Position numbers and translations under genes: made by a program
Notes under the pieces: generated by a model
Database searches by the model: none
What the model was told of the DNA's origin: nothing
The model's input: the letters and a program-made list of their open reading frames with translations, nothing else
Shown: one piece after another, positions 24,246 through 55,687 of the stretch
Layout: each line of letters opens with the position of its first letter
Position numbering within the stretch: position 1 is the stretch's first letter
From: Marsupella aquatica
Lineage: Eukaryota > Plantae > Marchantiophyta
Assembly (NCBI GenBank): GCA_973895155.1
Contig: OZ316895.1
Coordinates: forward strand, 2,963,659-3,027,658
Reading direction: 5' to 3'
Length of the DNA stretch: 64,000 bases

Positions 24246-26016
24246 TCTACTACTATAATAACGAATCCCGCCAGTTTTAGTCCTTTGTCCCGTCACAAAA
24301 ATGAAAAAGGAGGGAACAAAGCTAAGCCATCAGATATTTTCTAGAATTATTTATGGCTCTTGGATTGAGTGAGATGGGAACCTAAAATTGGCTGTAAATT
24401 ATAGTACAAGGTAGGTATGTAAGTTATAGTATAAGGTAGATATAATATGTCATAGAGTACTTGCAGGCGTTACTATAGTTATTTTGTAGCTTGCGTATAA
24501 TACTTTTTGGCATGGAGCATTAAAGTGTAAGTATATTATTTTATGGTCTATTAATTTAGAGTACATGTGGCATTATTGGAGCATTAAAGTGTAAGTATAT
24601 TATTTTATGGTCTATTAATTTAGAGTACATTTGGCATGGGGCATGAAAGTGAAAAGATTTACTTGAGATAATGTTTTTGGTAGGGAGCGGACACTAAGGG
24701 GAAGAGAGTAGGTTGACATTATATTATTTTGGCTTTTGCTCTTAAAAAGGAGATTTAACTCTTTGGAAGTTAGTTAATTTTTAGTTATCTTGCATGGACC
24801 CCAATTTCTATTTTGCACAATGATATTTTTCACTCAACAAAAGTTTTTGTGTAATAATGTATTTTAACAATTATTATTTTTATTCAACGATTATCTTTTG
24901 CACCACGTACGATCTATTTCTCAACAACATCTTTAACCAAACAACATCTATTATGCAACGCACGGGGATTGAAAGGATATCGAGAGAATGGTCATCTTTG
25001 CTAAACCCTAAAACACTAAACCTGAAACCGATAATATAACGTTGCTCCAATTTATAGTGGTCGCCATTCAAATGCATGGGCATTTTGGGTAAAAAAACAA
25101 AACAAAGAAAAAGACTCACTCCTTAGTTTCCTTGATTTTTTATTTCATAACATCTTTCACACAACGATAGCTTGGGTGAAACAACACCATTTTTCTTTTA
25201 ACATCTTTTACTTCACGATATCTTTGGCAAAATGACACATTTTTCTTAATAACATCTTTCACACAATGGTATGTTTGGCAAAACTACTTTTTTTTAAGAC
25301 ATCTTTTTACTTTGTGACATCTGTCACTTAACAACATCTTGGGCAACACGACATCTTATTTCTCAACAACATCTTTTGTGCAACGCACGGGTATTTTCCG
25401 TGAACGATGTCTTGGCCGACACAACGTTTTTTTCTCAACAACATCTTCGCCAACATGACAGTTTTTTCTCAACGACATCTTGGCCGACACAACGTCTTTT
25501 TTCTCAACGACTTCTTGGCCAACATGACATTTTTTTGCTCAATGATCTCTTGGCCAACACGACATCTTTTTTTCTCAACGTCTTCTTGGCCGACATGACA
25601 TCTTTTTTTCTCAATGACCTCTTGGGCGACAAGACATCTTTTTTCTCCACTACCTCTTGGTTGACACTACATATTTTCTTTCAACGACCTCTTGGCCAAT
25701 ACAACATCTTTTTTTCTCAACGACATCTTGACCAACACAACTTATTTTCTCTCAATGACCTCTTGGGCGACACGACATCTTTACTTTTAACAACCTCTTG
25801 GGCGCCACGACATTGTTTCTCTCAATGACCTCTTGGGCAACACGACATCTTTTCTCTCCACAACCTCTTGGGTAACACGACATCTTTTCTCTCCACGGCC
25901 TCCTAGGCAACACTACATCTTTTTTCTCCACGACCTCTTGGCTGACACTACATCATTTTTTCTCAATGACATCTTGGCCGACACGACTTCTTTTGTGCAA
26001 TGCACAATTGAGCTAG
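24246..26016 (+). mobile_element. Non-autonomous Helitron with an internal ~30-bp minisatellite
   Basis: 5' TCTACTACTA preceded by A; 3' hairpin TGTGCAATGCACA (25994-26006), then CTAG followed by T. Internal array TTCTCAACGACATCTTGGCCGACACGACATC at ~25140-25990. Confidence 0.8.
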
Positions 26017-26581
26017 TTCACCTATAAATATTTTGGGACAATTAAAAAGTTGGCGCTTTTGTGCAGTTCAACTGTCCAATTTTTAAGAAACCACGTGCCA
26101 TGCAAAATATATACATATTTCATATTTTTTATTTTGATCAGAATTTCACATAATATATTTGTACTCAAAAATAGAAAATAATTTTTATTGGATAATTATC
26201 TTTTATATAAAGTAAAGAAAGGTAAATTGGGGTTCAAGATTGGGGTTCAAAGTATAGTAAAATTCAGTGTCTTTTTTTGTGGTGACAATTTGCAATTGTC
26301 TTTCTGTCTCATTAGCCAGTGTTTCACCTAATCACAGGCCCCATTAGCTAGAATCTAACGGTCAGCCTTGAATCTAGGGAAATCTGACCATCAGGAATGT
26401 AATTGAATAGGGAATATTTCAAGCATCTGCTCCATCACACTGTACATTTGCCACTCTGGCAAAAAAGTGAAATCCTTAAAAACCACGCTGGTAAAATTGT
26501 AGTGTTGCCTCATGGACGTAGTCTTTAAAAAGTGAACTACATGTGTTTGGTATCGACTAGTTGTGTCTGTCTACTAGTTGT

Positions 26582-26925
26582 TGTTAGATATTGCTCTAGT
26601 CTTGTGACTCATGAGCTAACCACAGTTAGTCTAACTCGGGTTAGGACTTAGCTAATGTTAGCGGTAGTGTTGTTGTGTATATAGCCAGGGCTGATTCCAG
26701 ACCCTGGTGGAACTTAGGCTCATTGTTACGGAGCTAGTTGAGAGATAGGGAGATCTTGTGTTGTGGATGCTTGGTATGGCCGGTCGGCCTAGAGTGCAGT
26801 AAAGCTCTTGTGTGTTCCCATGGACGTAGCCTCATGTGGAGGTGAACCACGTATCTCTCTGTGTCAACTATTGTGCGTTGGATGGTTCATGGGCTTGCCG
26901 TTACGAATGTCGTCTATGCTCAACA
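26582..26925 (+). repeat. 5' LTR of copia element
   Basis: TG...CA termini, followed by PBS. Confidence 0.92.
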
Positions 26926-28500: not shown

Positions 28501-30407
28501 CGCTGTGAGGGTTGCAAGTGCTGCGCTGCTTGCTCAAACAGAGTGCTGCTCTATCAACTCTGGTATGGGAGTGCTCTTCATTTCTTGCTTTGACAATCAG
28601 GCTTTCTATGGATTGAAGTCATGTTCCAAATCATAGGCTTAGTCAAGAGGAAGTAAGTTGCTTGCTTTGTTTGTGCTTCTCACTTTTTGCTGATTGAGAT
28701 GAAGTGCTTTCAATCAGTTGCAGTTGGGCTGCGAGGTGGGCTACAAGGTGGGCTACGATCGGGTTGGGAGTTGGGCTGCAATCTGGTTACTAGGCTGCGA
28801 CCTGAGCTGGGCTGCATTGTGTTGCAATCTGTGAGTTGCATTGCCTGCAATCCGGTCCGGAGCTGAGCTACGCTGCTGCTGCAATCAAGTGCTCTTGGAC
28901 TGCTGTTGCGATTGAGGCTGTTGGAGGATTGTTGCTGCGATTGAGGCTGGTGTTGCAATTGAGGCTGGTGCTGAACTGCTATGATTCAGAGCTATTGGTG
29001 AGAGACTGAGCTTCCCTTGTTGAGCTACGTTGCTACGTTGAGCTACATTACTTGACCTGGTACTTTGCGCTGCGAGGTGGGTTGCGATCGAGTTCAGAGT
29101 TGTGCTGCAATCTGGTTGAGCTGGGTGGGTTTCTATGGCAACTGTGTCCCAAAATTGCAGGCTTAGTCAAGAGGAAGCTGCTCACTTTGTTTGTGCTACT
29201 CGCTGTGCTACTCGCTGAGGTGATTTCACTTTGAAGATGAACTAAGTGCTATGAACCGGCTTATTGTAAACGGGATTGTAAAGGAGTTATGATCAAGCTC
29301 TAGTGAGCTCTCACAACAATGTTGTTGTTAATCAATGTTGCGCTGTAGCTAGATGCCATTGCTTGACGTTGTGCTTTCAGTTGCGTTTTCAGTTGCTGGG
29401 CTGCAATCAGGTTGAGAGGTGGGCTGCGCTGTACGGAGAAACATTGGGCTGCCTCTGGAAATCAGAAAATCAGCTAAGACAATTTCCAGGCCGGGAGATT
29501 TCCAGGGAGATTTCAACTACGTTCAGGTACGGTCATTTTTAGAACTCGCTCCAGAGCTTAGTCTTCAAGTGAGCAATAGTTCTAGCTCATAGTGGAATAG
29601 GATTGACAACTCTTGTTCTACTACAGGGTATCGTTGCAGACTAAGTGATTCATTTTTTAATTATTCATTGCTTATTGGAACCGAGGCTCAAACCAAAACT
29701 TGCTTTGTTTTCAGGCTCCTCTGGCTATTGGACTGCTGTTGAGTTGCTGAGGGCTAATAAAAGTGTCCCATTTTTTACACCTCAAAGTGAAATCAGGTAT
29801 GACTTAGGGGACTCGAACATGTTTGCAACATTAATTGCATGCTTACTAGTCTGGACCAGGCTCTGGACACTACATCGAAACTTTTTTTTGCTTAGCTATC
29901 AATTTTGTAAGGACTAGGTCACACATCTCTGTGCGAAAGTGTGTTCATGTTGGGAAATTTTGACCAGAATTTGTTGTTGGATAGTTCTTATTGAATGATT
30001 CAGTTCACCCTCAAGTAGTTGCAGGGGTACAGGCAAAGCAAGGGGCTGTTGAGGAGCACCTATGTTTATGCTGCTGCAACCTCTGCTAAAATGTTGAGTT
30101 GAGGTATAGTACGGGACCTGTGCTGGTATTAAATTTTAGGTCTGTCATTTCCATCCATGACTTCAACCATTTCTAGTCGTGCAGAAGTTTATTTAGCTTC
30201 AAATGTAGTAGGAGAATTCTAATGTAGTCCATGAAGTTAATTTTGACATGTGGGCAATGTTGCTTCTATTCACCAGAGTTGATGTTGAGCTGCTGGGCGG
30301 ATCAAACTCTTTTTGAAGTGTGGTGCCTGGAGATGTTGTGAGATTCTTTAGGTTTGTCGAACGCAGAGGCAGTTGAGGTGTTGCCCCATTCTGATTACTT
30401 GTAGACA

Positions 30408-30854
30408 TTGTTACTGGTAGACATTGTTAATTCATCATTTACAAAAAACAGTGTAATGGCTATATTGAAGATTACCCTAGAGGAGAATTATGAGAAGCTC
30501 CTTTTGCAGCATCCAGACGAATGCTGCTGGTGTGAATCCTGTGTCAAGTGCAGGGTTGGCAATGGCAATTTTGAATGGTTCCATTGCTTTTGCTTGAAAA
30601 TGCGCGGAAGACTTGTTACTAGGACATACATGGCAAAGAACGGCAAAGTTGTCACACGCCGCTGGAAGTGCTCTTGTATAAGGCCAACCATTTGGCCTCA
30701 AAATGAGTGTCTTTTATGCAAGATTGTCATCCCGGACACGCTTGACATTGTAGTCCCTGATAGTATTCCACATATAACTGAGCTTGATATTGTAGCCCCA
30801 GATAGTATTCCAGATCAAGCTAAGGTTACAGCCCATGGATGCTTGACATTGTAG
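30408..30854 (+). CDS. Small Cys-rich ORF of unknown function (P-like element cargo)
   Basis: 148-aa ORF with CCWCESCVKC...HCFC...KCSC...CLLC. No family recognised. Confidence 0.4.
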   Translation: MLLVDIVNSSFTKNSVMAILKITLEENYEKLLLQHPDECCWCESCVKCRVGNGNFEWFHCFCLKMRGRLVTRTYMAKNGKVVTRRWKCSCIRPTIWPQNECLLCKIVIPDTLDIVVPDSIPHITELDIVAPDSIPDQAKVTAHGCLTL

Positions 30855-31501
30855 TCCCTGATAGTACATGGATGCGTTGTTCATATATGACTAGGCCTTT
30901 GTTTGCAAGACTGCAATTATCACCCTATTCATTAAAACTGGAATTTCTCTAGTCCAGAAGTTGACCTTCAAATTTCTTATTTTACCCCCAAAAGTTCTAT
31001 AACTTGTTCCCCAAAAGCATACATTTTAGTGGCCAAATATACACTTTTTGAGGTCTAAAATTACAATTCTAATGCCCAAATTATTAATTAAATAATTCAG
31101 TTATCAATTATTAATACTTATTAACCGGTGATGTATTATAAAAGTAAAAACCTATTTTTACAGGGTCGAGACCACGTCTGCCCCAATGCAGGCTCTAGAT
31201 GGTTTTGACCGGTTGTTGAATGTATATCAATTACTATGTAAAAATCTATGTCAAGATTATCTCGACCCAAATGTAGGGTCCACATAATTTTGACCCGTTG
31301 TTGAATCTATATCTCTAGCTATTCCCTTTGTAGAGGGTCTAGACCCAAATAACCTTTTTCTGAGAACATATCTACAAGTAAATGAGGATCAACAGCATCT
31401 AGACTCAAATGGATACTACGCATAGCTTCACTCTTTTTTCGAGTAAGAATATGTATATGTACAACTCACATCGTAACTGTTCAGTGTAGGGTCGAGATAA
31501 T

Positions 31502-32776
31502 CTAGACCCAAATCTCATGCTCCTCCACCCCGCAGAATTCATTTGAGCAAGTAAACCTAGACCCTGACGGGTCATATTTCATATCGCGATTACAGAAATT
31601 GAGAGGCTTTCTATTCCAGAACTTTGTTGTGAGGTCCCTACACCTCAAGACTTCCAAAACAAATCCCCGATGATTGTCTCTGTAGGGTCCTGTGTACTGA
31701 TATCCAATTAATGTCTTTGCAAGGTCGTTGATCGCCTCCTCCGTCAATTCCTCCATTGGTGGTAATTGTTGCACTTCATTTTTGATATCCCAGGGAATTT
31801 CGTCCGCTGTAACATCCAAGACTGTATGGATAACATTGGGAACCCATACCATACTACCCCACCTCTCCGACAACAGAGCATAAATGGCAGCCTGTTGATC
31901 CCTGTCCGATAAAACATTGATCATAGACCACTTTGGATGATTGATAAAAAGATAGTGCTGAAGATTGAAGGCATGATACAATTTCCTGAGCAGAGGCCAT
32001 AGTATTTCTGGAAAGAATGTATCATCCGTGGAGTGATGCGAAAATGAGGAAGGAAACAACCCACAATTCTCTGGATTTGCAAACGCCTTCATTGGAGTGT
32101 CATCAAGAAGGAGTGTATTAGTTTCGTCGTATAATCCACCATAACGTTTCCAAACAACCCTCAAATCCTTCAAAAGAATATTTGCCTTCCCATCGGTAAT
32201 GTCAGGCCTCTGGATTCCAGTATCGAATGTATCTTCTTGAGTGAGAATAAACTTGAATTGCTCTCTCTCTTCTTGATTGAAGATCAAATGAATCATTTCA
32301 TCTGTCCTGGGTTTCCTTGCACAAGTCCAAATGACAACATCAAATAATGAAAAAGCTGCGATTAAGAACTCATGAAGATGGGGTCGCTCAACATACATAA
32401 AGTTAAACCCTCCACGTCTCCCCCAGTGGACACCATTGACACTTGTTGCACTACGGCGCGGTCCGGAACTTGGCGTTTTGACAGAATCCCAGCACATTTT
32501 GTTGAGGTCAAGAATCAATAGCTTTCGTCTGATCGGACCGTGAAGTGGAGGCAAGGGTCCTGCAAAGTACGAACACCAACGTTAGAATTGTGGGAGATAA
32601 AACAAAGGAATGCTCGAGACGATCTCGAGCATCACAAGTGAATGAACAACAGTCAACATCATACCTGTTGTTTGTGGAAGGTCAGTAGTTGAAGAAATCT
32701 CAGGATATCTTCGGAGATTATTGTCGACGCACTCCACAATTGGTAAGGGCCCGCCTATTTCTGTGAAGGTAGACAT
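31502..32776 (-). CDS. FCP1/NIF-like (UBLCP1-like) HAD-family phosphatase homologue
   Basis: Motifs RRKLLILDLN, RPHLHEFL..F.VVIWT, KDL..VW, NTLLLDDTPMKAFANPEN. Exons 32776-32665 and 32559-31502 join in phase. The DxDx(T/V) motif is altered to DLNKM. Confidence 0.8.
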
Positions 32777-32980
32777 AATAATTTAGACGGCTGAATTTCC
32801 GGACAGTTCAAACTAACTTGGGTTTCAACCTCACGTGCTGAAAGACCCAAATTCATCTAGAAGGTTATCTCCTAGTAGGTTTTGGATGTCCAAATTTATC
32901 CCTCCGGGAAGGGTCTCAACAAGAGCTGGCTCAGACCAAACTGGCACTAATTTAAACTTATCCATCCTATACTTTCTAGA

Positions 32981-35900
32981 TCAAATAATCTTCTCAGACT
33001 GCTCTATAGAGACTTGTTGACCTTTTGACGGTCCATCAGTCCAAACATAATGAGTAGCACTTGCTTTGAGTGATTTGTAACCAGTTCTACCGATTTCAGT
33101 CCCCGGTTTCCTAACAAAAGGGAGAATTACGGGGCTTCCAGTAGAAGAATCTTTGAAAACAAGCTTATTCTCTGAAGCGCAAAACATTTGGTCCAAGGGA
33201 GAGGACGATGCACCTGCCTCGTCCTGAGGGGGAGTATGGAAGCCACTAGCTTTCTTAGTAGAGAAAATCTCATCCAGTTGAGGAGGGCTTGGAATTGGTT
33301 GGCTAATTGCATCCTGCAGGGTGGATTCCCAGCCAACATCCAAGGTTGAAGACTGTTGTTCACGTTGTGCATCCCCAAGGCCACCCGATGAAGGAACACT
33401 TGGAACATCGAGATCATCTCGAGCATCATTTCCAAATTCAGGGAGTATTTCACCCTCCTCTTCCATGTAGCTTGTAATTTTTGGGCCCTCTGTTTTGCGA
33501 TGCTCTAAATTCTCCGCAAATACTTCCTCATAAACACTGGCTTCCACTGGAGCTATGTCTGCGGCCGCCTCTTCTATAAGAACGAGGGGACCAGCAGTAA
33601 TTTCCTCAGATGGTAACGGCTCCTTGGGTGGCACATATAAAACTTGCTTGTTGTCATGAAGGAGCTGAGCAAAGGCTTCAGTGAATTCCATCTCTTGAGC
33701 TGTGTCCGAATACACAAAACAATCCCGACCAAGAATGACACAAGCTTTCAATGTCTGTCCTCCAGAGAAGAAATCCAACACTGTATGACCTGGGCACGAG
33801 AAATAATCAACAAGACGCTTTGTCATTCGCAAAGGCTTTGCTCTCGGATTTACAAAGCCACCACGCCGACCGACCATCTCATAAGATGGGGCCATCTTCT
33901 CCAAAACTTCGACATCAACAGTGGATTCATCGAGCTTCTCTTTCCCCTTTGATTGGTCTTTGTTGTTCCCAGTAGGGGCCTTCAAAGGCAAGACAGTGAA
34001 GTCTTTGTCCCACTTCTCACTGTAGTTCCAGAACGCATAAAAGTCATCAAAGAAAATTTGGGACCAGTCTGGTTCCTCTTCACAACAAATTCCCCCAAAG
34101 ATGATTGAGTCCCGAGCTCCAATGAGAAAATCTCCCTCCTCCTTGGGCACCTGATCACGGTAGTAGCTCCCGTACTCCAGCTTCGTGTGCACTTTCTTCT
34201 CACGACGAATCTTTTCAAAGGCACTCTGAATCTGGCCTATCAATGGGCCTTGACGGACAAAAAAGATTACTAAGACCTCCGTCGAGTTCGCCATCTGCAA
34301 GCAATACTCCAGCAAGACAAAAATTTTGGCATCTGTCCACTGCCGTTGTCGAATACGACCAAAATCGACAATGGAGAGTGGACACGTCCTTTGCACCGAG
34401 TCAACAACCTCAGGCTTCATTGTCCTCATCAAATTATCGCTAAAAAATGTGCGATAAGGAGTATCCTCCATTGAAGGCAATCCGCCAAATACCTTGCAAT
34501 ATATCTGCTCAAGCCTCACAATGAGACTTTGCGGAAATGGGTCTTTTGGCCTATTTCTTTTTAGGAGGTTGGAAATCCAAACCTCTCCAGCAAGTTGTCT
34601 AAGTTTGGGCAACTCACCACGATCCATAAATGCAGGCAACAATTGAGTTAGCTCAAACCAAGTGAGTGAATTGGTAAACCGATCCGGATACTTCAAAACG
34701 AAGTACTCCACAATTTTTACCCTCAGCTTGGTCATGACTTTGAAAGTATGAGCCATATCACTCATTGATTGAATATCAGATTTGTTGGCTTGGTCTTTCT
34801 TCAATAAAACCTTCTGTTGTTGAACGACATTAAAAACTTTCAGAATGTCGTCATTACTCAGGTCTCCTTCAAAGCATCTAAACAATGCCGGCGTAATCAT
34901 TTTTGTTGTCCGGGCTTTCCCGTTTATTTTTGAACCTAACTCCCCTAGACCATCCGAAAGAAGTCCCTTGACCCAATCGATGCACATTTGTCTCCAAGTT
35001 TGGAAGAGGTTCTCATCCGAAAACAACAACCAAAAAATATTCCTCAGATCGGATTTTCCAGTCGTTATTTTGGCAAGGGCCATAAAATCCTGGTCCAAAC
35101 AGTACAAAACAAATCTGAGGCTCGAGACAATCTCGAGGTAGAATTAAGGAACTATGGTAAAATTTATGGGGAATACATGAAGATAAATCAAATACAGAAA
35201 CTTGACCTTGAGGCTCGAGACAATCTCGAGCTCGAAGTGGATTTGAGTTCAAATATACCTGGAACTTTTGATGATCCGTTAGTCTATTGGACCCAATCAC
35301 GGGTCTCTCCGGACGGCCACACTCGTCAAATTGTCGACGCGCATGGACCATAGTATCAAGAAAACAGGACTCATACTCCATTGTCTTATTAACAGCATTT
35401 GCCCTTTGTGAGTGTTGAGCAAGTATTGTCCTTGGAGTTCTGTCCGAAAGAATTCGTGACTTTCGATATTGTAGACTCTTCGCGACCTCCTTCAACTTCG
35501 CTCTTAGCCCAACCTATGATCCAAACAGCTGCTTTTGCCGAGTGTTGTCCACTGATTGCAAGGAACTGCACCTTCTTATTCTTAACACCCCACTCAAACT
35601 CCTTTCGATCCTCAGTAGTATTCTCATAATGGAGCAACTGCAAACTCTCTCTTGAATACGGAATCAAATCCGCCACAGCTGGTACCATTCCAGGGTTTCT
35701 AACCATGGATTTTGCGACCTCCATGGCATGGTCTTTATTGAACATCCTATAAACCAAAACTGCAGATGGCGAATCTATACTGGTGACAGGAATGTCAAAA
35801 GTTTCATTCATGCCAAATGTGTAATACTCCTCAATCTCCTTAAGAACTTTGGCTCCTTCCTTAACGCTCTTTTCTCCCGGAGCATCTCTTGGAGTGCCAT

Positions 35901-37752
35901 CATCATCGGTATGTGCATTCACACCCGAGGAAGATGCCGGAATGAGATCTACCTTGGGCGATGCGGACTTTTTTGGCGGATGAGCCTTCTTCGATTTGAT
36001 TTCGGGTTTGTCAACCCTCTTCCTCTTTTGAGACACCTTCACTTCCTTTTTGTCCGAACCAGAGGTCTTGTCTCCTGCAGCTATGGATTTCACTTTACCT
36101 GTTTGTCTCCGATGAGACAACACCCACTTTTTACAAGCATCCTGGTCAAATTCTCCGGCTCCAAACACAAAATCAGGGGATATAGATTCAAACTCCCCCA
36201 ATTTGGATTCCAACATTAGTCTCAAAACCTTCCACGTGAAAGGAGTCGTGAATGCATCATCGCGATCAAGCCCATACTTCCGACAATAAAGGAATCCAAA
36301 AATTATGTCCGCGCGCTCCAGATATAGGAGTATCTTCTAGCAAATTACTTGTAGTAAAACCCTCGGGGAAGAAACCCATTGATATCACGCTCAGTTGTTT
36401 CCTGGCTGCACGTTCAATGTTAAGATCGCAAGAGTAGTTTTTGGCGTGAAGTCTAATTAGAGCCCACTTCCCTGTTTCGTGGTTCTCCACCGTCAAAACC
36501 ATGTCCTTACCGTTACTCGTCACAATAGAAACAACAGGCCCTAGAAGGCTGCACACCAGAGGATCGACTGATGGAGACCTCATCTTCACACAAATAATAG
36601 TTCCTTCCATGTCTTCAGTTTCAGCAAGCTCAATGGCCCAACAGAATCCAAATAAACTTTGTCCAGGGCAGGAAATCTCAATTGCATGTTCATCTTCGAC
36701 TACCAAATTAGGCGATCCCAATTTCGCACCTGGTACAGCAAAAATGTAGCAATTGTCAGGAACATGTACTACAAAACCAAGAAACAAATAGGTGGCTCGA
36801 GATGATCTCGATCTTCAGTTTACTATTCAGACATGTTCCAATGCCATTTCATCCGTGGAATTTAAAAAGAGATTTCAAACCCAAGAATCCCAAGAAACAC
36901 TATAGGCTCGAGATGATCTCGAGCCACCATCTGTTTAAAAGAAAAAGATAAGGGCTCGAGATGATCTCGATCCACATATATATCAGTTGAGGCTTTATTC
37001 CAACTGGTCCAAAAGGCAAGCTTGGATCACATTGAAAAGGATATTAGTAATTGAAGTAGACAACAAGGAGTCCTTCCAACTGGAAGAAATTGGCCAAGGG
37101 AGACGAATGAACATAAGGGAAGACGGTGTGGGATATATTCGGCTCGAGACGATCTCGAGCCTAACATATCAAATGAGTGATCTGAATATCATATTCAACA
37201 ATTAACATCATATTCAATCAACGATAAAAAATCCACTTTCTCCATTAACTTCTGATACCCACAAACCCGTTCGGATGTCAATGATCAGAACGAGTTGGAG
37301 GGCACAGAAGTCCCTGGAGGAAGGAAATTTTAGATATTTTAGATATGATGTTCAATTTTGAAGGGTAAGGGTTTCCAACTTGAAGAAATCTCACTAGGTC
37401 ACATGCAGGAATTGCATATTGGCTCGAGACGATCTCGAGCCTCATGCCACTTACATCAAATGCAAAATCAATTAATAGATCACAACTTTTGAAACAAAGT
37501 ATTGGAGAAAACATCAATAGGCTCGAGATCATCTCGAGCCTCAACGGCATCCAAGGAATCCAAAAACAAGTGGACCAATTGAAGCTCGAGATGATCTCGA
37601 GTTAAACCTGAACAGAACAAAGATGAAGAATTACGTTTAATGGTGCGATGGATCTGATGTGCTGAGTCTAGATGGGTCTGGAGCTCTTCGCCAACGGTTG
37701 CAAGGTTGTACTCAGCGAAGTCCTCCTTGGAGAAATCTACAATAGTCGACAT
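32981..37752 (-). pseudogene. Large ParB/Srx-like domain + beta-class N4/N6 DNA-methyltransferase-like fusion gene; two apparent frameshifts
   Basis: ParB-like segment IPVTSI...RMFNKDHAMEVAKSM...FLAISGQHS (~35540-35800). MTase C-terminal motifs VNPRAKPLRMTKRLVDYFSCPGHTVLDFFSGG..LKACVILGRD (~33720-33855). Phase-0 intron 35090-35258. Frameshifts near 36275 and 35500. Putative first exon from ATG 37752. Confidence 0.7.
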
Positions 37753-38894
37753 GGCTGGTGATGAGAGGAACGTACTACGGGCTGAGAACTTAAAAAAAAT
37801 CTTGAGCCTAAAAACAAATCTTGACCCTATCGAAGCTCGAGCCTAAACACAAAATCTTGACCCTATAAAATCTCGAGGAAAAAACCTAATCTCGATCCTC
37901 TGCAATCTTGAGGTTAATAGAAGGATCTCGAGGCAAGAGCGCGAAACGATCTAGAGGCAAGGAGGCAAGGGACGCGAGGAGGCGAAGAGGCAAAGAGGCG
38001 AGGAGGCAAATGTGAAAATGGGGAATTCAAAACCCCTGAAGCCACTATAAGCCCCTCGGGGGTCGGCCTTGGCCGTGCCAAGCGTGCCAGGGCTCGTGCA
38101 GGCTCAGGCAGGCTGCCACGCAACCTACTGGGTGCGTACAGTCATTATTACGGTCACACGTGTTGTCATTATTGTTATCCGTACTTCAGCCCTGCCGCAA
38201 GTTTAGCCGTGACACAAGTTCAACCATTCCGTCTTATTGCCCTTTTTGTCTGTCAGGGTTTTATATATTGCTTCTCCTTGCTCTTCAGCGGGTCATTCTT
38301 CTCATTTTGTTTCACCGCTCGCTCGTTTCTTCCTCTGCCTCTCTGCTCTCTCTCCCTCTCCCTCTCTCTGGCTCTAGATTTGTGCTCTGATCTCTTTCTG
38401 TTGTTCTTTTCAAGGGTTTTGGAGTCTACGTTTGTGTTTAGGATATTTCGAGAAATTGTCATTTTAAGCCCCGAAGGAGGTCTGAAATAATTGAGCTCCT
38501 ATCTTTTAGAAAACCGAACCTTTTCAGCTTATACTAATGTCGGTCAAAATCCATTTGGAAGCCTTTTCCCTCTATTTGATGGCCTTTTAGAAGCTTTTTC
38601 TCAGTGTCTGGAAGTAAACTGGGAGCCTACTTTCTTAATTGCACCAAATCATTCCTCTAGATCATCTAGAGCCATTTATATGTTCTTATTTTGGGTGGCT
38701 TATTATTCCTAATAGTTTCTTTGTCAAATACAATGTCCTTTTTGGCTCGAGATCATCTCGAGTCATAAGTTTGGTCCTCAAACTTATTCACTTTCCCCTT
38801 CTTTCTAATGGTGCATTTGGTTTTCCTTCTTATAATAAATGTTTTTAGAGTGTCGGAGGTATAGAATCTTAGTTCGATATTCAGTGAGATTCAT

Positions 38895-39130
38895 ATTTGA
38901 CCTCGAGATCGTCTCGAGCTAAATACTTCTGAATTTTTACATATTGGTGTTTTTGGTCCCTTTTCTACCTCGAGATCGTCTCGAGCTAAATACTTCTGAA
39001 TTTTTACATATTGGTTGTTTTGGTCCCTCTTCTACCTCGAGATCGTCTCGAGCTAAATACTTCTGAATTTTGACGTATTGGTGTTTTTGTCCCTCTTCTA
39101 CCTCGAGATCGTCTCGAGGTAGAAGAGCTT
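38895..39130 (+). repeat. Tandem ~67-bp repeat, each unit carrying the CTCGAG palindrome
   Basis: Palindrome cores at 38902, 38969, 39036 and 39102 with near-identical spacers. Confidence 0.9.
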
Positions 39131-39232
39131 CTTATTTTCTCTATCACACAATTTTGTGGGATAAACTTCTACACTTGGGTTTTTGTAGTCACTTTACCTC
39201 GAGATCATCTCGAGGTAACTACATCCAACGGT

Positions 39233-42200
39233 TTGGGCCACGTTTTCAAAATGGGGAGTTTCTCTCGAGGGGACAAGGTGTGCCTCGTAATCGACGGAGT
39301 GGAAGTTGCTTGCGGGACGGTCCTCAAGGTTGACCCGGGTGACTCAGTGCGTAATGTTGATTTGGGAAGTAATCGTATAGGAGTTCTCATTGAGAAGTGC
39401 TATGAGGGATCACGGGAAATTCCTTACCCTTTGCCGCCGATCAGGACCCTGTTTGATGCTGTCGACTCTTGCATTATTTGGGATGCCCCTTTTGCATATT
39501 TGAAGTCACAGTCAACTCCAGCGACAACGAAAATGGATGCCTCCTGTTCTACAAAGGATACGGTTCTGGGTTTTGTACCAGAGAAATCGTCGGTGGAAAG
39601 TTTTGGAGACTTGATTGTATCTGGCGATGAAGTCGAGGTCTGGATCGGCAGTCAGATTGTGGCTCGTGGATTTGTGTTCAAGACGAATCCCGATGAGACA
39701 TGTCACAATGAAAGACTTGGCACTTCTAGGATTAGTGTGAAAATATGTGAAGTCTTTCAAGGAAGGGAGAGGTTACCCTTTCCTCACAATGGAGCCGATA
39801 CCGTTCAGGAAGCATTGGATACTTTTATATTGTGGAATTTAAAGGATGTTACTCGGAGGAGTTCTTCCCGGGATATGCTAAACAACCTGTCCAGACAGGA
39901 TGTTTTTTCAAATTATAATTTCAAGGATTATAGTTTGCGTTCTAATTGGATGACCGAGGAGGTGGAATTGTATGCTGAGGATAATCAGACCAAAGTGGGG
40001 GTTGGCATCATCACAGTTCCTTTCGAGTCAGGTGCAATTGATGATGATGTTCTTGGACCAGATCACGTTGGGGTTGCTGTCACACGCGTGATTGACCCTC
40101 TATTTTTCCCAAATATCTCCCCAGGTGTGCCTGGTCTTGTTAGGTGGGCCGTCCGTTCACTTTTGCTGATATCAAGGGGTATTTTTCTTCTGGATCTCAT
40201 TGAAGAGGTTTCTCCGAAACCAATTATTGATGGTCGAGATCATCTAGAGGTAGATATGAAAGGTGACACTGAGTTTTTGAAGCGCCCGTATAATTTCATC
40301 AAGAGAACAAAGGTCAACCCAGATGAAAAAAGGAAGAAGCACTTGGAGTCTCGGGCGATACTGAAAATCACAGAGGAGGAAATCGACTCCATCCAAAGAG
40401 AAGGTTGTTGTAAGTTGAAGTGTTGCCTCAGCATGCCGAGAGAAGACCTACAAGAGATAAGGAGGGAATACCATGGGATGTCAAGCGACAACAAAACCAG
40501 TCACATTCTCACTCTTTTTGGCTGTAGGGAGAAGGAAGTGGAGACAAAAGGATATTTTGTTGTAAGAAGTAGACTTGTTTGCAAGGGTGCATTTATTAAA
40601 ATGCATGGATTCAGCACTGCCAAGTATTATGATTACAAAAATCAATATGAAGCAGGTTGCACGGTTGGATTCCACGGAAACAAGGGTTCACACAAGACAC
40701 GGGGAAGCACCTTGCATGCTCGTGCTTTGTTGGAGTCCATTCTAACCCAAAACGGAGAACCCATGCCGCATCTTCCCTATGGAGGGTCTCACGGGACTGA
40801 CACGGTTGAGTACAGACTTCCATCTTGTTTCACGAAGAAAGAGATTTTTGAGGAGGTATACTCAAAAATGGAATTAGATGGCTACGTGAAGGTGAGTGAA
40901 AACACTATGTATAAACTCTGGAGTGAGTCCTTCATGAATTTTGACTTTCACAAGGGAAGTGCATTTGCAAAGTGTACACTTTGCACTGAGTTCAAAGATC
41001 AGTTGATGCGGGAGAAGAGAAAGAAAGAGCGTTTAGAGATTGAGGAAAGAAGAGCTCGCCATCTTCGTGAGCAAATGTCTAGGAGATATGTTTACTATGC
41101 TCATAGGGTTCTTGCGAAGAAGGATCCTGAGAACTATCTTTGCATTATACATGACAAGATGGACCAGGCCAAGACATGGATCCCTAGGTTGGTCCCCACT
41201 CCTAAATCATTGTCTGGTAGTGGTCAACCGCTCCCCATTGCGCTCACTGGGATGTTGACCCATGGAAGGGATCCCGGAGTGTATGCTCACTTCAGTTTTA
41301 CTGGGCTTTGGCCAGGAGATGCAGACTTCACAGTGACATCATTGGCCAAGTGCCTTAGAGATCTGGAGGATTACAAGGGGGACAAATCTGGAGACCTCCT
41401 TGAAGGATTATATTGGGCTGCAACGAGGCCAATTTTTCAATCTCTTTTGGACTTTGAAGCATTTCTTGCAGGTTACTTAGAACCCAAAAAAGTCTCAATT
41501 GCTAGATTTCAAGAGCTGAAGATGACCAAGACGACTTTGGTGTTGATTTCAAGGCTACGTCTACCTCTTTCAAACCATTGCCAAGGCACCTGACCTTGCA
41601 AATGGATAATTCAGGGAAAAATAACAAAAACCAGTACGTGATGGCATTTTGCAGTGAGCTTGTTAGTAGAGGGGTTTTTGAAACAGTGTAGATGTCATTT
41701 CTCATGGTTGGTCACACCCATGAGGATGTCGATGCATTGTTTTCAAAAGTATCCAACCAAGTGAAGTACAAGGAGGTTTCTACCCTCTTGGGGTTGATGG
41801 CTGAGGTTTGGGAGTGTGAAAGCATTCATCCTGTGCCACGGTTGATCCAAGAGGTTGCAACTTACAAAGAGTTTTTGAAAACTTTCAAGGTAAAAGACAT
41901 AGAGGGTCACTCAAAACCAGTGGCATTTCTTTTCTCTATGAGAGATAATGTTCCAATATATCAATACAAAGCACATGTGAAACAACCTTGGGACCCTCCA
42001 ACCGGAAGGTCCATTTGGAGAACTGATTCCAACACCAATGCTCTCATTTTACCAGAAGGTCAACCGTTTGCAAAACCCATCTCCGGGGATGTACGAGGCA
42101 AGGTTGAAGAAATCATCCCACTCCTTAATCGTTACATTGAGTTTTTGAAGAAGAGCTGTAAGGATGAGACCTCTATAGCATATCATGAGCGGTTTCCTTT

Positions 42201-42939
42201 GGTGAAATATTGGGAGATGGTGGTGCAAGTATTATCTGGGGAGCTTACAATTGAAGGGGAGGCAGAAATACAGTTAGCATTGACATATGAATTCTGGCCA
42301 AAAACCAACCACGGAACTGGTTACAAGGTTAATAGTACAGGAACCTCTGAACCATTGGGGGAGCCTAGTAGTAGTACACAGAATCCACAAATGGTGGAGC
42401 TTCAGAATGAGTACCTGGAAGAGATGGAGGATCAAGCTGCAACATTTGTTGGTGCTCGACACGAGCGAGAACTTGCACGTTGGATTCCTCTGCAGGACAT
42501 TCAAGAGGGTCACTTTGTATTTCTCCGTCCAGAGGATGAATGGGAAAAGAAGAATGGGAAAGAAAATTTCTGGTTGGTGAGAGCTTTGGGTGTTGTGGAC
42601 CCAAACCATGAGGTTCCTTCAGAAGACTTGCAATGCAATGAGAATTCTCCTACTAGTACACGGTATGCTCCTATGTTCCAAGTGCAATGGTGGAGGCCTA
42701 AACATGGTAAGCATGATGCACCGGATCATGTGCAATATTCACGTTGCTTTCAGACCACTAAGACTTGGGAGGTGGATCCTGGGTTTGACAGTGCCACTGA
42801 ACGTTGGCAATTTGCTAATTCTGCTATGTATGGATTCAAGTCACGCTCTAGAGAAGAAAATATAATTGATAGAGGTTTGACCATTCCCAAGAATATTTTG
42901 AAAACACTCAAAACCTACATGGAAGGGATTGTTGAGTAA
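39233..42939 (+). pseudogene. Sola-like DDD transposase with three N-terminal Tnp1/En/Spm-like beta-barrel repeats; one frameshift and one stop
   Basis: Motifs FAKCTLC, HDKMDQAK, LQMDNSGKNNKN, SFLMVGHTHEDVDALFS. Frameshift at ~41515; TAG at 41689-41691. N-terminal repeats of the form VA.G.V...P......LG...I.V.I.....LP.P....TL..A....I.W. Confidence 0.8.
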
Positions 42940-43890
42940 GTCAAATGTTTTTTAGTAGTCACTCTGTCAGAGTGAGGGAGTCTAGTATGTCAATTAGTTT
43001 GGAATTAGACATGTCAGAGTGAGGGAGTCTATGTCAATTAGTTTGGAATCAGACATGTCTTTAGTACTTACTGAGTGTTGGTTAGTACTAAGTACTAGTA
43101 TATCTATTTAAGGAACTAATTATTATAATATTTTGGGATACTAGTTTGAATAGGTGGAGGTAATTGGACTTGGATACCTTTATAATTGCTTCAATTAATT
43201 ATTATATCAATACAGACTATATATTACATGAAGTCTTAATATCCATGATAGGATGTGAGTGCCTCTTAGTACTGTCTAGTAAACCTTAGTTTCAACTCGA
43301 GTTGCTTAGAATGTACTAACAAATTACTTGTCTGAATGGATATTTAAACTAAACCCTAAGTAGAAGGTTAATTTAGCTAGCTAAGGGTAGAGATCATATT
43401 GAAGCTTTACTAGTTATATGGGTAGAGATCATATTGAAGCTTTACTAGACACTTATATTCTATTAGTCAAATTGAATCAATGTAAGTAAATTCTACTTCT
43501 TATCCAACATATTTTACATTATTATCACCCAAATGTTTTTCTTTAGAATCCAAATTAATATTTCATTTTCTCCTATGTACAATCTTGATCCCCCAAATGT
43601 ACAACTCCCACTGCCCAAATGTACAATTCTTGTGCCCAAATATATATTTTTTGGTGCCTAAATGTCCAAAGATCAAAGAATTTTCCAGTTTTAATGAATA
43701 GACTGATAATTGTACCATCCATGATATATGAGAATATTTTTCATTCCCATTATGTGGCAAAGTTTCGCAAGCTGGCATTGTATTTATGTATGTCTTGGTT
43801 GGTCTGTGTTCAGGTTGCACTGTGTAGTTGACTTCATCTGGGAGGGAGGTTTGCAGATCGTTGGAGCAGGTGCTATGATTCACCTTATCT

Positions 43891-44640
43891 TTGTCTATGG
43901 ATTGCCAACTATCATACATGTCCCCCTCATATGTGATGTGCTTTGTGATGATTGCAGTTGTAACCATGCCGACAAGGAATTCAAACATGAAGAAAGCAAC
44001 ACAGTCCTCTGACAAAGAAGCCTCTTTAGAAGAGGTATTGCGTATTCCGTTGTTCTCTGAGCAAGAGATTCTACAAACTAGCCCTCATGTTTGTGCAATT
44101 TGTGAGCATGGTGGGAAGTTGGTAATTTGTGATGGGCCATGTCACAGGCAATTTCATTATGTGGTTGGAGATGAAGCCCCTAATGACTCTTGCCCCTGTG
44201 TAGTCCTTCCCCTCCATCATGGAGGGAAGCCATGGTTTTGCCCAAATTGTAACCAGGACCAGGCCATGTGTTATGGGTGCCGCACTGTGGGACTGTCACC
44301 TACAATTGTGCGAAAATGCTCTGATCATTTTTGTGTACGATTTTATTGCTTTGGGTGTTTGGTAGCCGATGCAAAGTCCTGCCCACTACATACATGTGTG
44401 ACATGTTATCAGAGTCTTGAGGGTCAGATGGTCAAGAACATGGTACAATGTCTACGATGTCCAAATGCCTGGCATACAGATTGTCTCCAGATGATCAAAA
44501 GCAAAGGGTTTGCTCATGATAGGGACATCTGGGAACATGAAGCACATGGACAACAGCGACAGATGTTTTATTGCCCCCGTCATCCTATTGATCCACACCT
44601 CAAGACTCCAATCAGGGACCACATTTCATGGCTCCAGTGA
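43891..44640 (+). CDS. EDM2/NSD-type triple PHD-finger protein (P-like element cargo)
   Basis: CAICEHGGKLVICDGPCHRQFH...WFCPNC...CPLHTC..C...CLRCPNAWH..CL...YCPRHPIDPHLKTPIRDHI matches the EDM2 PHD cassette. True start may be 43966. Confidence 0.8.
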   Translation: MSMDCQLSYMSPSYVMCFVMIAVVTMPTRNSNMKKATQSSDKEASLEEVLRIPLFSEQEILQTSPHVCAICEHGGKLVICDGPCHRQFHYVVGDEAPNDSCPCVVLPLHHGGKPWFCPNCNQDQAMCYGCRTVGLSPTIVRKCSDHFCVRFYCFGCLVADAKSCPLHTCVTCYQSLEGQMVKNMVQCLRCPNAWHTDCLQMIKSKGFAHDRDIWEHEAHGQQRQMFYCPRHPIDPHLKTPIRDHISWLQ

Positions 44641-45135
44641 TCTGAATAATGAACAAACCTATTACTTAGGTTTCAACGTCGTAGTGGGGTATGAGCAAGG
44701 CAAATACTTAAGCTGCATCATGGGTGGTAGTACCCAATTTTATTAGTGTTGACATTTTGTCATAATTAAGGTCACTAATAGTGCTGCATTTTGATGAGCA
44801 GAAGCACTAAACCTCGGGAACTGTTAGAAAAGCAGGCGAAAAGGATATTTTGTCCAAAGATATTTTATCCAACTTTAACGGTATATCTTGATTTTCACTG
44901 AATACATTTGCATGTATGACGGATTGCATTATAAAGTGTTTTGGCCTATTAGCACTTCTATTGTTAAATGTATGCTGACATTATGTACATTACATGAGAA
45001 TGTGTATGTTGTCATTGCATCTCTTGAAGATCCTAATGTGTTTCCCTTGTGTGTATTTCAAATGTATTTGTGCAGGTCTTTCTGTTATCGACTCCAAAAG
45101 CAATGGTGCTATGCATGTTCTAGATTTGTATTGCA

Positions 45136-48100
45136 ATGGCAGCCCCTAAACCCAACTCTGTTAAATTAATACGCAAAGTTGGGGATGACAAGGCTGATTT
45201 ACCAATCTGTGTTTTGTCATTCAAAGAAGGACACACCCTACATGATTTTAGGGCTCGTATTGCCTCTACTCTAGACTTTGACTTTGATTTTTGGGATGAG
45301 AGACTTCCTGGTCGAGTGAAACTTGTACATGAGAAATTAATTGATCTGTCTGAGCTGGATGGAAGAGTTATTGTTGTACAACAAGAACTTGGAGATGGTG
45401 GGAGGATCCCACCAGTACCCTGTCATCCTTGCACTCCTGCATCATTGGGTCCAAATACTGGGACACCACAACTGGGGCCAACAGCACCAACACCCTCCCC
45501 TGTAAGGGCTTCTTTTGAGTCACAATTGATGGGAGATGTCCCATCAAAGCTATGGAAAGATGAGTGGATGAGGTTAGAGAAATGGGTACATAAGAAGGGT
45601 TATGGTGATCACAATTGGAGAATTCGTACCTGGGATGAGGGGACAGATGTTCGAGGGCATCTGGAGTGTCTTGAATGTAGGGAAACTTATGGCAATGCAG
45701 ACAACTCTCAGAACCCTAAATCCATCTCCAATTGCTTTAGTAATTTTAAGACCAAACACTTGGTCTTCAATAAGCACAAGGATAACTATTGTCGGAGGAG
45801 GGGCATTCCTTCTACTTTGGTTCAGGTAGCAGACATCTCTGAGAAGCCAGAATATGATCATGCAGATGCCATCAAAGTAGGTGTTGAGATAGTTCAGCGA
45901 TTGAATGTTGAGCTTGGGGATGATGGCAAACTATTCTCTATTGTTCCTGATCCCAGTACTCCTGAGTATGTAAACAGGTCTTTCCTGTTTAAGGTTCGTT
46001 GTACTGTCTGTGGAATGCTTCACACTGACTTGTGCCCCAAGAAGCTTACCTTGGAGCCCAATTTGAGGACACACTTAGTGAGTCGAGATCACTTGGATGC
46101 ATTGGAGACTAGGCATGACACAAAAATGCTTGCCTTGAGGTCTGGGAAGAGGGGCAGGCCAAAGAGGACTGATTCTAGGGACCTACATCCTGGTCAGAGC
46201 GGGATTTTGAAGTTCTTTAAAGATGATGGGTCCCGGACAGGCAGCAGTTCAGGTTCAGGTGTGTGTGAATCTGTTGATCTTGGTCTGAGTTTGCTTTGCT
46301 GGGGATTATGGGTAGAGAGAGGTGTACCTCGACTGTTATGGAAGGGTATATCTTATGATATTTCTGGCATTTTGGATGATCAGTCTGGGGGAATTACATG
46401 GCATTGTGAGCCAAGTTGTTGCTTGGATGTTTTCCATCCAAGTAGAGAGAGTGTTGTGAGTATAGCAGGCTGTTTTAGACACAAGGATTGCTTGAGGTTA
46501 TCACAGAATGGAGGAGGATTTGAAAATCTAACTTGTAGTGAATGTGATTCTATAACACTAGAAGATGATTTTCGTGGACGGGTGCACAGGGAAGCGGAAG
46601 CAGTAGTCCACAAAGGGAGCCGAACCACTGTTGGTGGTATACGTTTGGATTATTTGACCAACACAGAGTTAAGAGATCAAGTGCACAAGCTGAACTCTGT
46701 GCGACGAAAAGAGCGTTGGTTGTTAGCTTTGCAGGCTCAGAAAGTATGTGCCTTGAGCACCAGGAAACGAAAACTAGAGGAGTTGTTAGGAGTTGCAGCA
46801 GACAGGAAGGATTTGAGATTGTTTCTTAGGAGTATTTTGAATGGACACAGGAATGGTGCATTTGGTGGTAAGGAGGGTTTGTGGGATTTCTTGAAGGATG
46901 TAGCTCGCAATTTAGGCAGGAAGCCAAAAGGTAAATAATCGTTATAGTAATAGGACTCGAGCTATTGCTCAGGCTATGTTCCAATTTGGGGGCCGTCAAG
47001 TTGCTCATTGTTTTGCACGAAACTTGACAGCCCCTAGCCTTGTGACCCTAAAACGTGATAGAGCAAAACTCACACCTTTTTGAACCGGGTTACGGAAGGA
47101 AACCTTTCAGGAGATTGCTAGAGTGTTGTCTGCTGCAAAGCACTCATTGGGCATTGAGGGGGATGTGCCTGTTATCTTTGCTGAGGATGAAACAAGGATC
47201 AAAGAACGCCCTAGGTAATTGGAATTGGACATTTTTCCAATTGTTTTTTTAATGACTTTACAAGTAGCACTTGGCTGGAATTGCTGTGATATTGAAAAAT
47301 TGCATGTTTGTGTTTCAGGTGGGAGGCAAAGTATGATACTCTCATTGGTTTCTGTGGACCTTCAGAGCAGCATGTATGCTCCTATGGTTTGGAAATTCTA
47401 GTTGGTGAAGGTGATGAGGGGTATGATAAAATTGTAAGTACATTTGAACAATGCCCCAAGTGCATGTATGCCCGAGTTGTGATTGTGAATCCTCTGCATG
47501 AGTCCTTACCTAAATTGGCTGTGTGTGCACTTCCAACTTGTAATAAGTTCACAGCTTCTTGGGTACGAGAGCATTGGGTCCAGTTAAAGGCTTTTTGGGA
47601 TGAATATTGTAGAGCTATGGTAGGCCCTTTGCTTGGACATGCTAGTGATGGTGATGCACGTCGCCGAAAGTTGATGCTGGAAGATTACAGAGGGCAGAAT
47701 GGATCATACCCAAGGTACGGAGTTGGGTGGGAAGGGTGGACATACTCTGTTTCAATTCTACCAAATGGGGATTTGTATGGCTTTGGTGACCAAGACCAAC
47801 CTCATAATGGGAAAAAGATGATAAACCCCTTAGACAGAGTGTCTTCTTTACTGGTGCTAGGAGATCAACATGCATCTTTATCTTATGTAGCTAATGTCTA
47901 CAATCATTATCCAATTCATGAACATGGCATGGCTTGGGATGATGTGAATAGGACTGACCGGCAGAATTGGGCAGGTCCACAACGAATAGCAGCAAGAAGA
48001 GTGCAGCAATGTCTGAAATATATGTATGAGAGGAGAGATGTACGACATGAACGAAGTTTAGGAACTCAGTTGTACTTGGAGATTTGTGCAAATTACTTAG

Positions 48101-54300: not shown

Positions 54301-55687
54301 GAATTTACAAGTTGAAGGACAGTCCTTCAGAGGGTGGAGACAAGATCTACAAGGCAAGGCTTGTTGCCAAGGGGTTCACTCAGGAGAAAGGAGTGGACTA
54401 CAATGAGGTTTTTTCACCGGTGGCTAAGTATTCCACAATTCGGATCTTGTGTCAGCTTGTTGTGTTTTTTGGTCTGGTGATGGATCAGATGGATGTTGTT
54501 ACTGCTTTTCTCTATGGCAACTTGGAAGAGATGATCTTCATGAGACAGCCACTAGGCTTTATGAAGAAGGGCCAAGAAAACTTAGTTTGCAGATTGCTCA
54601 AGTCCTTGTATGGATTGAAGCAGTCTCCCAGACAGTGGAACAAGCAGTTTGATGATTTCATGTTTGCTCAAGGTTTTACAAGGATGGTGTATGATCTTTG
54701 TGTGTATACGAAATCAGTCAAGAATGATGTATTTGGTTTCATCATTCTGGTGATCTATGTGGATGACATGCTGATTGTGGCTAAAGATCAATCTGAGGTT
54801 GACAGTCTCAAGGCAAAATTGAGTGCTGAATTCAGGATGAAGGATCTTGGTAAGGCCAAGAGGATCTTAGGTATGGAGATTTTTAGGAACTCTGAGACTG
54901 GACAGTTGTGCTTGAGTCAAGGCCAGTATGCAAGGAAAGTACTTGCACGATTCAACATGGAAAACTGTAAGCCAGTGAGTATTCCTTTAGCTTCACATTT
55001 CAAGTTATATATCATCGGCTTTCTCTCCTACGGATGCTGCGGAGAAAGGTCTGATGGCTAAGATTCCTTATGAGAAGGCAGTAGGCAGTCTGATGTATTT
55101 GATGACTTGTACTAGGCCTGACTTGGCCCAAGAGATGGGCAAGGTTAGCATATTCATGTCAAATCCAGGAAAGGTACATTGAGAAGCTGTGAAATGGATT
55201 CTCAGGTATCTTAAGGGTACACAGGACTATGGATTACTATTTGATAACAAATCAGATAGAACATTAGTTGGCTATGTAGATTCTGACTATGGAGGCTGTC
55301 TGGATACAGGGAGGTCTACAACTGGGTTTGTATACACTCTTGGAGGAGGATGCATCAATTGGAAATCTACCTTGCAGAAGTGCATATCTCAGTCTACTAC
55401 AGAAGCAGAGTATGTTGCAGCAGCAGAAGCAGCAGCAGAAGCAATTTGGTTGGATAAGTTGATCGCGGAGATGGGATTAGAGCATGGAAAAATAACTCTA
55501 AACTGTGATAGTCAGAGTGCTCTTCACTTGGCTGCTAACCAGGTGATGGATAGCAGGGTGAAGCACATTGATATCAGGTACCATTTTATCAGGCAAGCAG
55601 TGTCTAATAAAACTTTTGAGTTAGTCAAGATTGATGGAAAGCTCAATCCCACTGATGCTTTTACCAAAGTGATTCCTTTGAAGAGTT

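Follow-up and report, generated by a model that had tools for sequence, protein, structure and literature searches.

The target sites of bacterial ParB proteins (parS) are palindromes present in several copies, and a GxH-type motif is found in ParB_N. As far as the accessible text of each source goes, the Sola1-1_Ec32 transposon of Ectocarpus carries an opposite-strand ParB-methyltransferase (MTase) gene for which binding to, and modification of, its own transposon have been proposed (PMC12477816), the Plavaka elements of Bostrychia have inverted-repeat arrays beside ParB genes (10.1101/2025.02.11.637652), and the motifs of the VANC system of Arabidopsis are dense in introns and upstream regions, with a local loss of CG methylation shown by experiment (PMC5735166). 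The present analysis concerns a 64,000-nucleotide stretch of the liverwort Marsupella aquatica (contig OZ316895.1; the whole stretch is referred to as the window), which contains a Sola1-like cut-and-paste DNA transposon with a transposase gene, a cargo gene for a predicted ParB-like/MTase-fold protein, and 21 copies of a short palindrome. The palindromes look selected, a conclusion supported by their conservation among copies of the transposon and by matching peptides in proteins of a related liverwort. They are tentatively proposed, at somewhat less than an even chance, to serve as operator-like sites to which the cargo protein of the transposon would bind as a dimer, thereby lowering CpG methylation without catalysis.

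The likeness to bacterial ParB/parS lies in a palindrome of similar length in several copies and in an ISGQHS sequence (GxH-type) within the ParB_N-like region of the cargo protein; the context here is by contrast a eukaryotic transposon, and the helix-turn-helix (HTH), CTP binding, ParA partner, and sliding belong to the bacterial system. The element shares with Sola1-1_Ec32 (PMC12477816) its large size, a 4-bp target site duplication (TSD), and an opposite-strand gene with an N4/N6 MTase part and, putatively, a ParB-like part. Sola1-1_Ec32 is 21.5 kb long with 282-bp terminal inverted repeats (TIRs), as compared with 12.8 kb and 25-bp TIRs here, and its MTase is predicted to be active, whereas in the Marsupella element the catalytic motif is absent and an FCP1-like open reading frame (ORF) follows, the two proteins being compared by description; the main text of that paper lacks the word "palindrom" and names no target site. 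The Plavaka PAG3 element of Bostrychia is likewise a giant DNA transposon with a ParB-like gene and adjoining inverted-repeat arrays proposed as binding sites; it differs, in the available text, in belonging to the EnSpm/Plavaka superfamily, in having ParB fused to a 2-oxoglutarate oxygenase with the MTase as a separate gene, and in its repeats, which are tandem beside one gene, whereas those described here are mostly dispersed over 9 kb and extend into coding sequence.

With VANC and the VANDAL elements (PMC5735166) the transposon shares a family-specific short non-coding motif, growth by tandem duplication, and the same orientation within clusters, and a VANC-like loss of CG methylation would be expected by analogy. 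VANDAL elements are described as Mutator-like with non-palindromic motifs of 8–9 bases, in contrast to palindromic sites in a Sola1-like element, and no VANC homology turned up in Pfam scans, no direct comparison having been made. Spm TnpA (10.64898/2026.08.24.746577) is also element-encoded and reduces CG methylation through binding to motifs that occur in clusters, and relatives of the present transposase carry PF03017; in the accessible part of that source, however, TnpA binding and hypomethylation are confined to the termini and the motif is non-palindromic.

Searches of an open-access library returned no land-plant report of the transposon family or of the target word, the Ectocarpus FASTA supplements, Bostrychia Supplemental Table 6, and Repbase being beyond its scope. 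Within the portions available, neither Iyer et al. (PMC4738411) nor the Marchantia DN4MT1 paper describes the cargo or transposon family, and PMC5751038 gives no Sola1 motif. As a hypothesis, the design itself has already been published for brown and red algae; new here are the (probable) land-plant lineage, the dispersed and coding-embedded sites, the family-wide loss of the catalytic motif, the additional FCP1-like ORF, and what may be a CpG footprint.

A Repeated Palindrome within a Sola1-like Transposon

Contigs were found in which position 30914 of the window is joined directly to 43708, skipping 12,793 bases with four letters that fit either side (runs X1, X3, and X5, three of the four public runs aligned), which is the empty site of the transposon. 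The AATT duplication on both sides fits the AWWT preference of Sola1, a 4-bp AWWT target duplication being given as a Sola1 hallmark in the accessible text of PMC3845634. By this duplication, the TIRs, and the HDKMD, DNS, and GHTHED motifs of the transposase, the element appears to be Sola1-like. The window copy is decayed: its reading frames are broken near 36310, 35497, and 41512, and the cargo exon has a premature stop at 32981–32983; the breaks near 36310 and 41512 are missing from contigs of other copies. Aligned contig depth was not taken as copy number. Over 37510–37599 the depth spikes across two sites (X2, X4) with loose ends that are unrelated, which hints at many further site-bearing subfamilies or derivatives.

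When two mismatches or fewer were allowed, CTCGAGANNNTCTCGAG gave 19 matches in the 64-kb window, as compared with 0.07 ± 0.29 (maximum 2) in 100 dinucleotide shuffles. All 19 lie within 32613–40249, and the 51 kb of the window outside the transposon hold zero copies. Two further copies with outer bases G..C, at 31250 and 31491, were found at three mismatches, giving a total of 21. A weight matrix made from these 21 palindromes, and partly circular in that respect, scores its members at 20.2–38.1, the next sequence (37940) at 15.2, and all others at 9.0 or less. An unbiased count of palindromes across the transposon revealed no second repeated one, and the TIRs neither contain nor resemble the word. 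Near the right end, a short duplication includes two decayed site-like sequences (43387 and 43422) with matrix scores of ~6.

The preliminary description had placed about 20 such palindromes in introns and upstream of the transposase, and this distribution stood: one copy is in the FCP1-like intron, two are in 35090–35258, seven in 36796–37601, seven upstream of the transposase, and two in coding sequence (33407 and 40233). By the predicted gene model 19 of the 21 copies are non-coding; 19 are also more than 1.6 kb from both transposon ends, with two less than 1 kb from an end. As to its intron calls, 35090–35258 and the predicted intron at 32560–32664 have GT/AG ends, the first being backed by protein alignment as well, with the intron at 36796–37601 and the promoter position as predictions.

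Across the 42 half-sites T, C, A, G, and A are invariant, although this is partly circular for a set picked by likeness. The core T-C-(G/T)-A-G-A is constant, the arm C and the final arm A are never substituted (42/42 for each), and 34/42 half-sites begin with an outer C, giving the candidate consensus S-TCKAGA-YSA-TCTMGA-S. The arm CpGs are mostly retained, as had been noted, with 37/42 intact, four changed to the TCTAGA form, and one to CpA; the symmetric change reported at 38655 was also found, TCTAGA being present in both arms. The statement that each arm contains CTCGAG, the recognition sequence of XhoI and PaeR7I, is true of the majority and fails in the minority that lack the outer C. 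Because CTCGAG is destroyed by the changes that are tolerated (G or A in place of the outer C, and TCTAGA) while the A that follows it stays constant, the link to these enzymes was not sustained.

Beyond the arms, T-x-W-R-S is preferred before each arm, both sides alike, and T is found at position −5 in 23 of 34 de-duplicated half-sites as compared with a local background of 29% (p = 3e-6). Pairing between the two flanks of a site does not exceed chance (24 versus a shuffled mean of 18.4, p = 0.11), although an excess would be expected of a selected hairpin, and this suggests that sequence outweighs stem length. The palindromes read TCR or TTG at the center on the inferred sense strand in 17/19 cases (p = 0.0007), the exceptions being 33407 and 37522, and in 12/14 when obvious local duplicates are collapsed (p = 0.013). 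The flanks of the left copies are mostly GG..CC and those of the right copies AC.., and since the two clusters differ in this way, a few founders could account for the orientation. The tracking of transcription by orientation is real but weak, and local duplication may transmit it. Most copies have mutually unrelated flanks, with some others sharing theirs.

Conservation of the Sites among Copies and Relatives

In the region 36760–37640, alignment of four runs revealed 27 variable positions (at least 25% of contig depth), none of which falls within the seven palindromes that make up 119 of the 881 bp (hypergeometric p = 0.019), and none of the 11 indel rows (at least 25%) falls there either. 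This comparison of motif with flanking sequence, together with the peptide traces below, supports the initial view of a selected site rather than random repeats. At 31253 and 35129, where the window copy has decayed, the palindrome is preserved by nearly all other copies among the best 40 of 1,868 rows; at 31253, within palindrome 31250, the A of the window is G in nearly all of them.

The coding copies force the peptide R-D-x-L-E/D, which reads RDHLE in the linker of the transposase (40233) and RDDLD in the acidic linker of the cargo protein (33407). The Calypogeia transposase P0117 has GRDGLD exactly aligned to GRDHLE of the window, within a hypervariable and otherwise unalignable linker; such a peptide is present at the linker position in 1 of 30 transposase homologues that span it, against a background of 2 in 32,147 residues. 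Among 16 cargo proteins, two have GRDRLE where tblastn places RDDLD of the window, namely the Calypogeia protein P0001 and its close metagenomic relative P0005. As the peptide is missing from other homologues, the word is suggested to be subfamily-specific.

Two liverworts, Calypogeia fissa and Riccia sorocarpa, supply all named homologues of the transposon proteins. In Riccia sorocarpa, a transposase and a cargo homologue have consecutive locus tags (R1sor_018196 and 018197); in the window transposon the cargo gene is on the strand opposite the transposase. Metagenomes yielded a single coding fragment of 1.8 kb (L001), which ends before the linker and contains no repeated palindrome, and viral contigs contained no loci related to the transposon. 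A motif scan of the viral contigs gave 31 single-match loci, and only L006 had several near-matches; it was rejected as chance, being a phage stretch of 68% GC without tblastn or blastn likeness to the transposon.

The Cargo Protein and the Transposase

The central domain of the cargo protein is, in its structural model, a β-class amino-MTase fold, matching CcrM with a Z-score of 17.3 and a root mean squared deviation of 3.4 over 216 residues. Foldseek also returned MTases, and the domain scores 27.5 bits against PF01555 (cut-off 26.7). Active β-class amino-MTases carry the catalytic motif IV, [DSN]PP[YFW]. This motif is found in none of the 37 cargo relatives that span the position, most of which have D-F-x-R, and DPPF is present only in the bacterial-type P0087. 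Asp242 and Arg245 at the motif IV position, and DFFSGGQ, a conserved but altered form of the S-adenosylmethionine-binding motif I, are invariant in 10/10 aligned proteins. Within the ParB-like region, SGQHS is invariant in 5/5, and the Atlas comparison gave DUF3723 at 0.95 and, with DUF3723 skipped, ParB_N clusters at 0.90, the family being on 32% and 11% of the members of these clusters. The label ParB-MTase used in the preliminary description was right for the MTase fold, with the catalytic motif absent and the ParB half on weaker evidence. For residues 300–510 of P0111, which cover the ParB-like region, the nearest Atlas clusters are fungal DUF3723 (0.95); no literature on DUF3723 together with ParB was found. 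In the FCP1-like ORF, DLNKMC stands at the expected place of the DxDxT motif, and in a Riccia gene model (P0079) the FCP1-like part is fused to the MTase.

The window transposase matches only DUF7869 in Pfam. Its core contains HDKMD (near 41150), DNS, and GHTHED, all shared by the eight long homologues checked (of 36), and these motifs are taken to supply the DDD catalytic triad of Sola1, with presumed residue roles. The N-terminal repeats correspond to PF03017/PF26133 in relatives, P0117 matching PF03017 (TNP1/EN/SPM) with an E-value of 2e-8.

CpG Retention across the Transposon

With the sites masked, the observed/expected (o/e) ratio of CpG drops near ~41,100, from 0.62 over the stretch between the left end and this point to 0.27 beyond it (0 of 2000 block permutations), whereas GpC is unchanged. 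The step lies ~0.85 kb past the last palindrome. Synonymous CpG is kept at 148/568 positions (26%) no more than 900 bp from a palindrome as compared with 14/137 (10%) farther away (p = 4e-5), and at 7/364 in neighboring ORFs; non-CpG synonymous controls are flat. At equal distance from the promoter, 43/155 positions are kept on the cargo arm and 15/152 on the transposase arm, the cargo arm remaining at ~0.25 over 7 kb and the transposase arm dropping to 0.05. The left non-coding end of the transposon has 8 CpG versus 15.6 expected and the right end 1 versus 18.5 (p = 0.01), and this depleted right end lies outside the transposase core. As a possible footprint of protection, the pattern is suggestive, not decisive.

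Models for the Function of the Palindromes

In the proposed mechanism, the ParB-like/MTase-fold cargo protein, rather than the transposase, would bind the palindromes as a dimer, and the bound protein would keep the promoter and genes less CpG-methylated, and hence expressible, by protecting them from host 5-methylcytosine. Since the catalytic motif is missing in every relative checked, occlusion by binding, or recruitment of host factors, is favored over the writing of N4-methylcytosine (4mC) or N6-methyladenine (6mA). The palindromes multiply through local tandem duplication, as in VANDAL elements. Their two-fold symmetry, symmetric flank preference, and symmetric tolerated changes suit a dimer, so that of the two possibilities raised earlier, a dimeric-protein site or a hairpin, the former is favored and the latter is unsupported by the pairing of the flanks. 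Moreover, a position far from the ends and clustered around the divergent promoter is not typical of transposase end sites. The precedents in Plavaka, Ectocarpus, and VANC described above, and the higher CpG retention near the palindromes, also speak for the proposal. In the accessible accounts, algal ParB accessory genes are proposed to bind and mark their own elements with no target tested; the present palindrome is a sharp candidate site, with evidence that it is kept across liverwort-type relatives even within coding sequence. Given the family-wide loss of the catalytic motif, the issue becomes whether a mark is blocked rather than written. Such a mechanism, if confirmed, would be an independent plant route to sequence-specific anti-silencing beside VANC and TnpA. 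A more specific version, in which a bacterial partition module has been converted for anti-silencing, the ParB-like dimer loading at parS-like palindromes and spreading ~1 kb, with the dead MTase shielding CpGs and the evolutionary footprint ending 0.85 kb past the last site, is considered rather unlikely.

Several observations weigh against the cargo-dimer proposal. The ParB domain was without confirmation in Pfam, PHROGs, NCBIfam, and PDB sequence searches, and the model of the ParB-like region is of low confidence (predicted local distance difference test mostly <50), the fold search returning MTases only. The CpG step falls at the place where the catalytic core begins (HDKMD near 41150) and aligned depth rises ~threefold; as the core is shared with other families, methylation guided by those families could cause the step. 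Elements of the window without sites show similar declines from 5' to 3', synonymous CpG falling from 9/40 in gag to 2/39 in RNase H of a Copia element and from 12/51 in the HTH to 4/47 in the DDE part of a pogo element, and U-box ORFs without sites keep 0.37–0.39, with long terminal repeats (LTRs) at an o/e of 0.59–0.64. On the cargo arm, where all positions are no more than 849 bp from a palindrome, distance to the nearest one has no effect (rho = 0.02), and the whole CpG pattern comes from one transposon copy with one boundary. As to selection, contig ends may hide variants near repeats, the four runs stem from two studies, and the Calypogeia evidence is protein only. Finally, a transposase with TnpA-like repeats is a serious alternative binder.

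That alternative, in which the transposase would use its three N-terminal repeats to bind the palindromes and so control or switch on the transposon that encodes it, with the cargo protein as a bystander or partner, is held to be a minority possibility. The PF03017 match of P0117 speaks for it, as do the binding of clustered motifs and the CG hypomethylation caused by Spm TnpA and the activation of cognate copies by the AtMu1 transposase (10.64898/2026.08.24.746577, accessible part). TnpA, however, targets termini, yet only the two outlying palindromes are near an end; the right end holds at most two badly decayed sites and the TIR is without the word; and, in the available texts, TnpA and VANC motifs are non-palindromic whereas ParB targets are inverted repeats. 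Somewhat less probable still is a cargo protein that binds the palindromes but has another role, either writing 4mC or 6mA with an atypical active site or aiding transposition as a loaded clamp: the whole β-class fold is kept, Asp242, Arg245, and DFFSGGQ are invariant, the arm C is never replaced, and the accessible text on Ectocarpus (PMC12477816) predicts 4mC or 6mA, all of which is set against the absence of [DSN]PP[YFW] from all 37 relatives spanning motif IV.

The remaining explanations are regarded as improbable. If the palindromes acted as short stem-loops, either in single-stranded DNA or in RNA as it is transcribed, a transcription-linked orientation (17/19 copies) would be accounted for, and folding energies of individual copies as DNA range from −4.3 to −17.2 kcal/mol, the one at 39102 reaching a 16-bp stem; but every palindrome folds, the arm sequence itself is fixed beyond the needs of pairing, the flanks pair no better than shuffled ones, and the difference between GG..CC and AC.. 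flanks means that orientation could be inherited from few founders. A comparably low likelihood is given to the view that the palindromes are neutral remnants left by local duplication, or that a host transcription factor binds them; the four copies in a 67-bp tandem repeat and the shared flanks of some others could be cited in its favor. Against these stand the unrelated flanks of most copies, conservation above that of the flanks, recurrence of the coding copies in a relative at 40–55% protein identity, and absence of the word from the rest of the window (51 kb). The cargo-dimer reading remains the preferred one on this evidence.

Feature Coordinates and Neighboring Sequences

Table 1. Positions of the transposon and its parts in the window, with the basis or content of each assignment
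Feature	Coordinates	Strand	Basis or content
Whole Sola1-like DNA transposon, 12,789 bp	30919..43707		Empty-site joint and ends read from sequence
Left TSD, AATT	30915..30918	+	Empty-site joint, sequence
Right TSD, AATT	43708..43711	+	Empty-site joint, sequence
Left TIR, 25 bp	30919..30943	+	23/25 bases match right TIR
Right TIR, 25 bp	43683..43707	-	Sequence
Two G..C-type palindromes (31250, 31491)	31250..31507		Close to left transposon end
Main exon of FCP1/NIF-like ORF	31502..32559	-	PF03031, E 3e-17
Predicted intron with palindrome 32613	32560..32664	-	GT..AG ends
Cargo exon: helical domain, β-class amino-MTase fold (modeled), acidic linker, conserved C-terminal domain	32831..35089	-	
Intron with palindromes 35121 and 35214	35090..35258	-	GT/AG ends; Calypogeia proteins align across
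Cargo exon: N-terminal region, putative ParB-like domain (ISGQHS)	35259..36729	-	Frame broken near 36310 and 35497 in window copy
Seven palindromes (36796, 36907, 36955, 37143, 37423, 37522, 37585)	36796..37601		5' of cargo coding exon
Predicted divergent promoter region, CpG o/e 0.75, degenerate site 37940	37900..38500		Inferred from gene directions
Seven palindromes 5' of transposase	38655..39214		Four within 67-bp tandem repeat (38900-39118)
Transposase	39251..42939	+	Three N-terminal repeats, linker with palindrome 40233, Cys-rich region, DUF7869 core

The transposon is hosted by another multi-copy repeat (30405–30914 and 43712–49383), the empty site being found at high depth. This repeat contains an NSD-like plant homeodomain (PHD) ORF at 43879–44640 and two long ORFs without a Pfam match, 45124–46938 and 47296–49383, which are nearly without synonymous CpG (5/313); the latter is taken to resemble a P-element-type transposase. 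Farther out, 344-bp direct repeats with 97% identity and TG..CA-like ends (26581–26924 and 59110–59453, 32.5 kb apart) enclose Copia gag-pol pieces (52045–55689) and probably represent an LTR element with nested insertions. Inverted arrays of a 35-bp (17+18) unit at 25147–25995 and 61499–62700, 35.5 kb apart, resemble subterminal repeats of a giant outer element. A broken pogo/Tc5-like transposase (HTH_Tnp_Tc5, DDE_1) is located at 18603–20395, and a duplicated block, 76% identical and with a U-box ORF in each copy, occupies 3813–5655 and 12337–14183.

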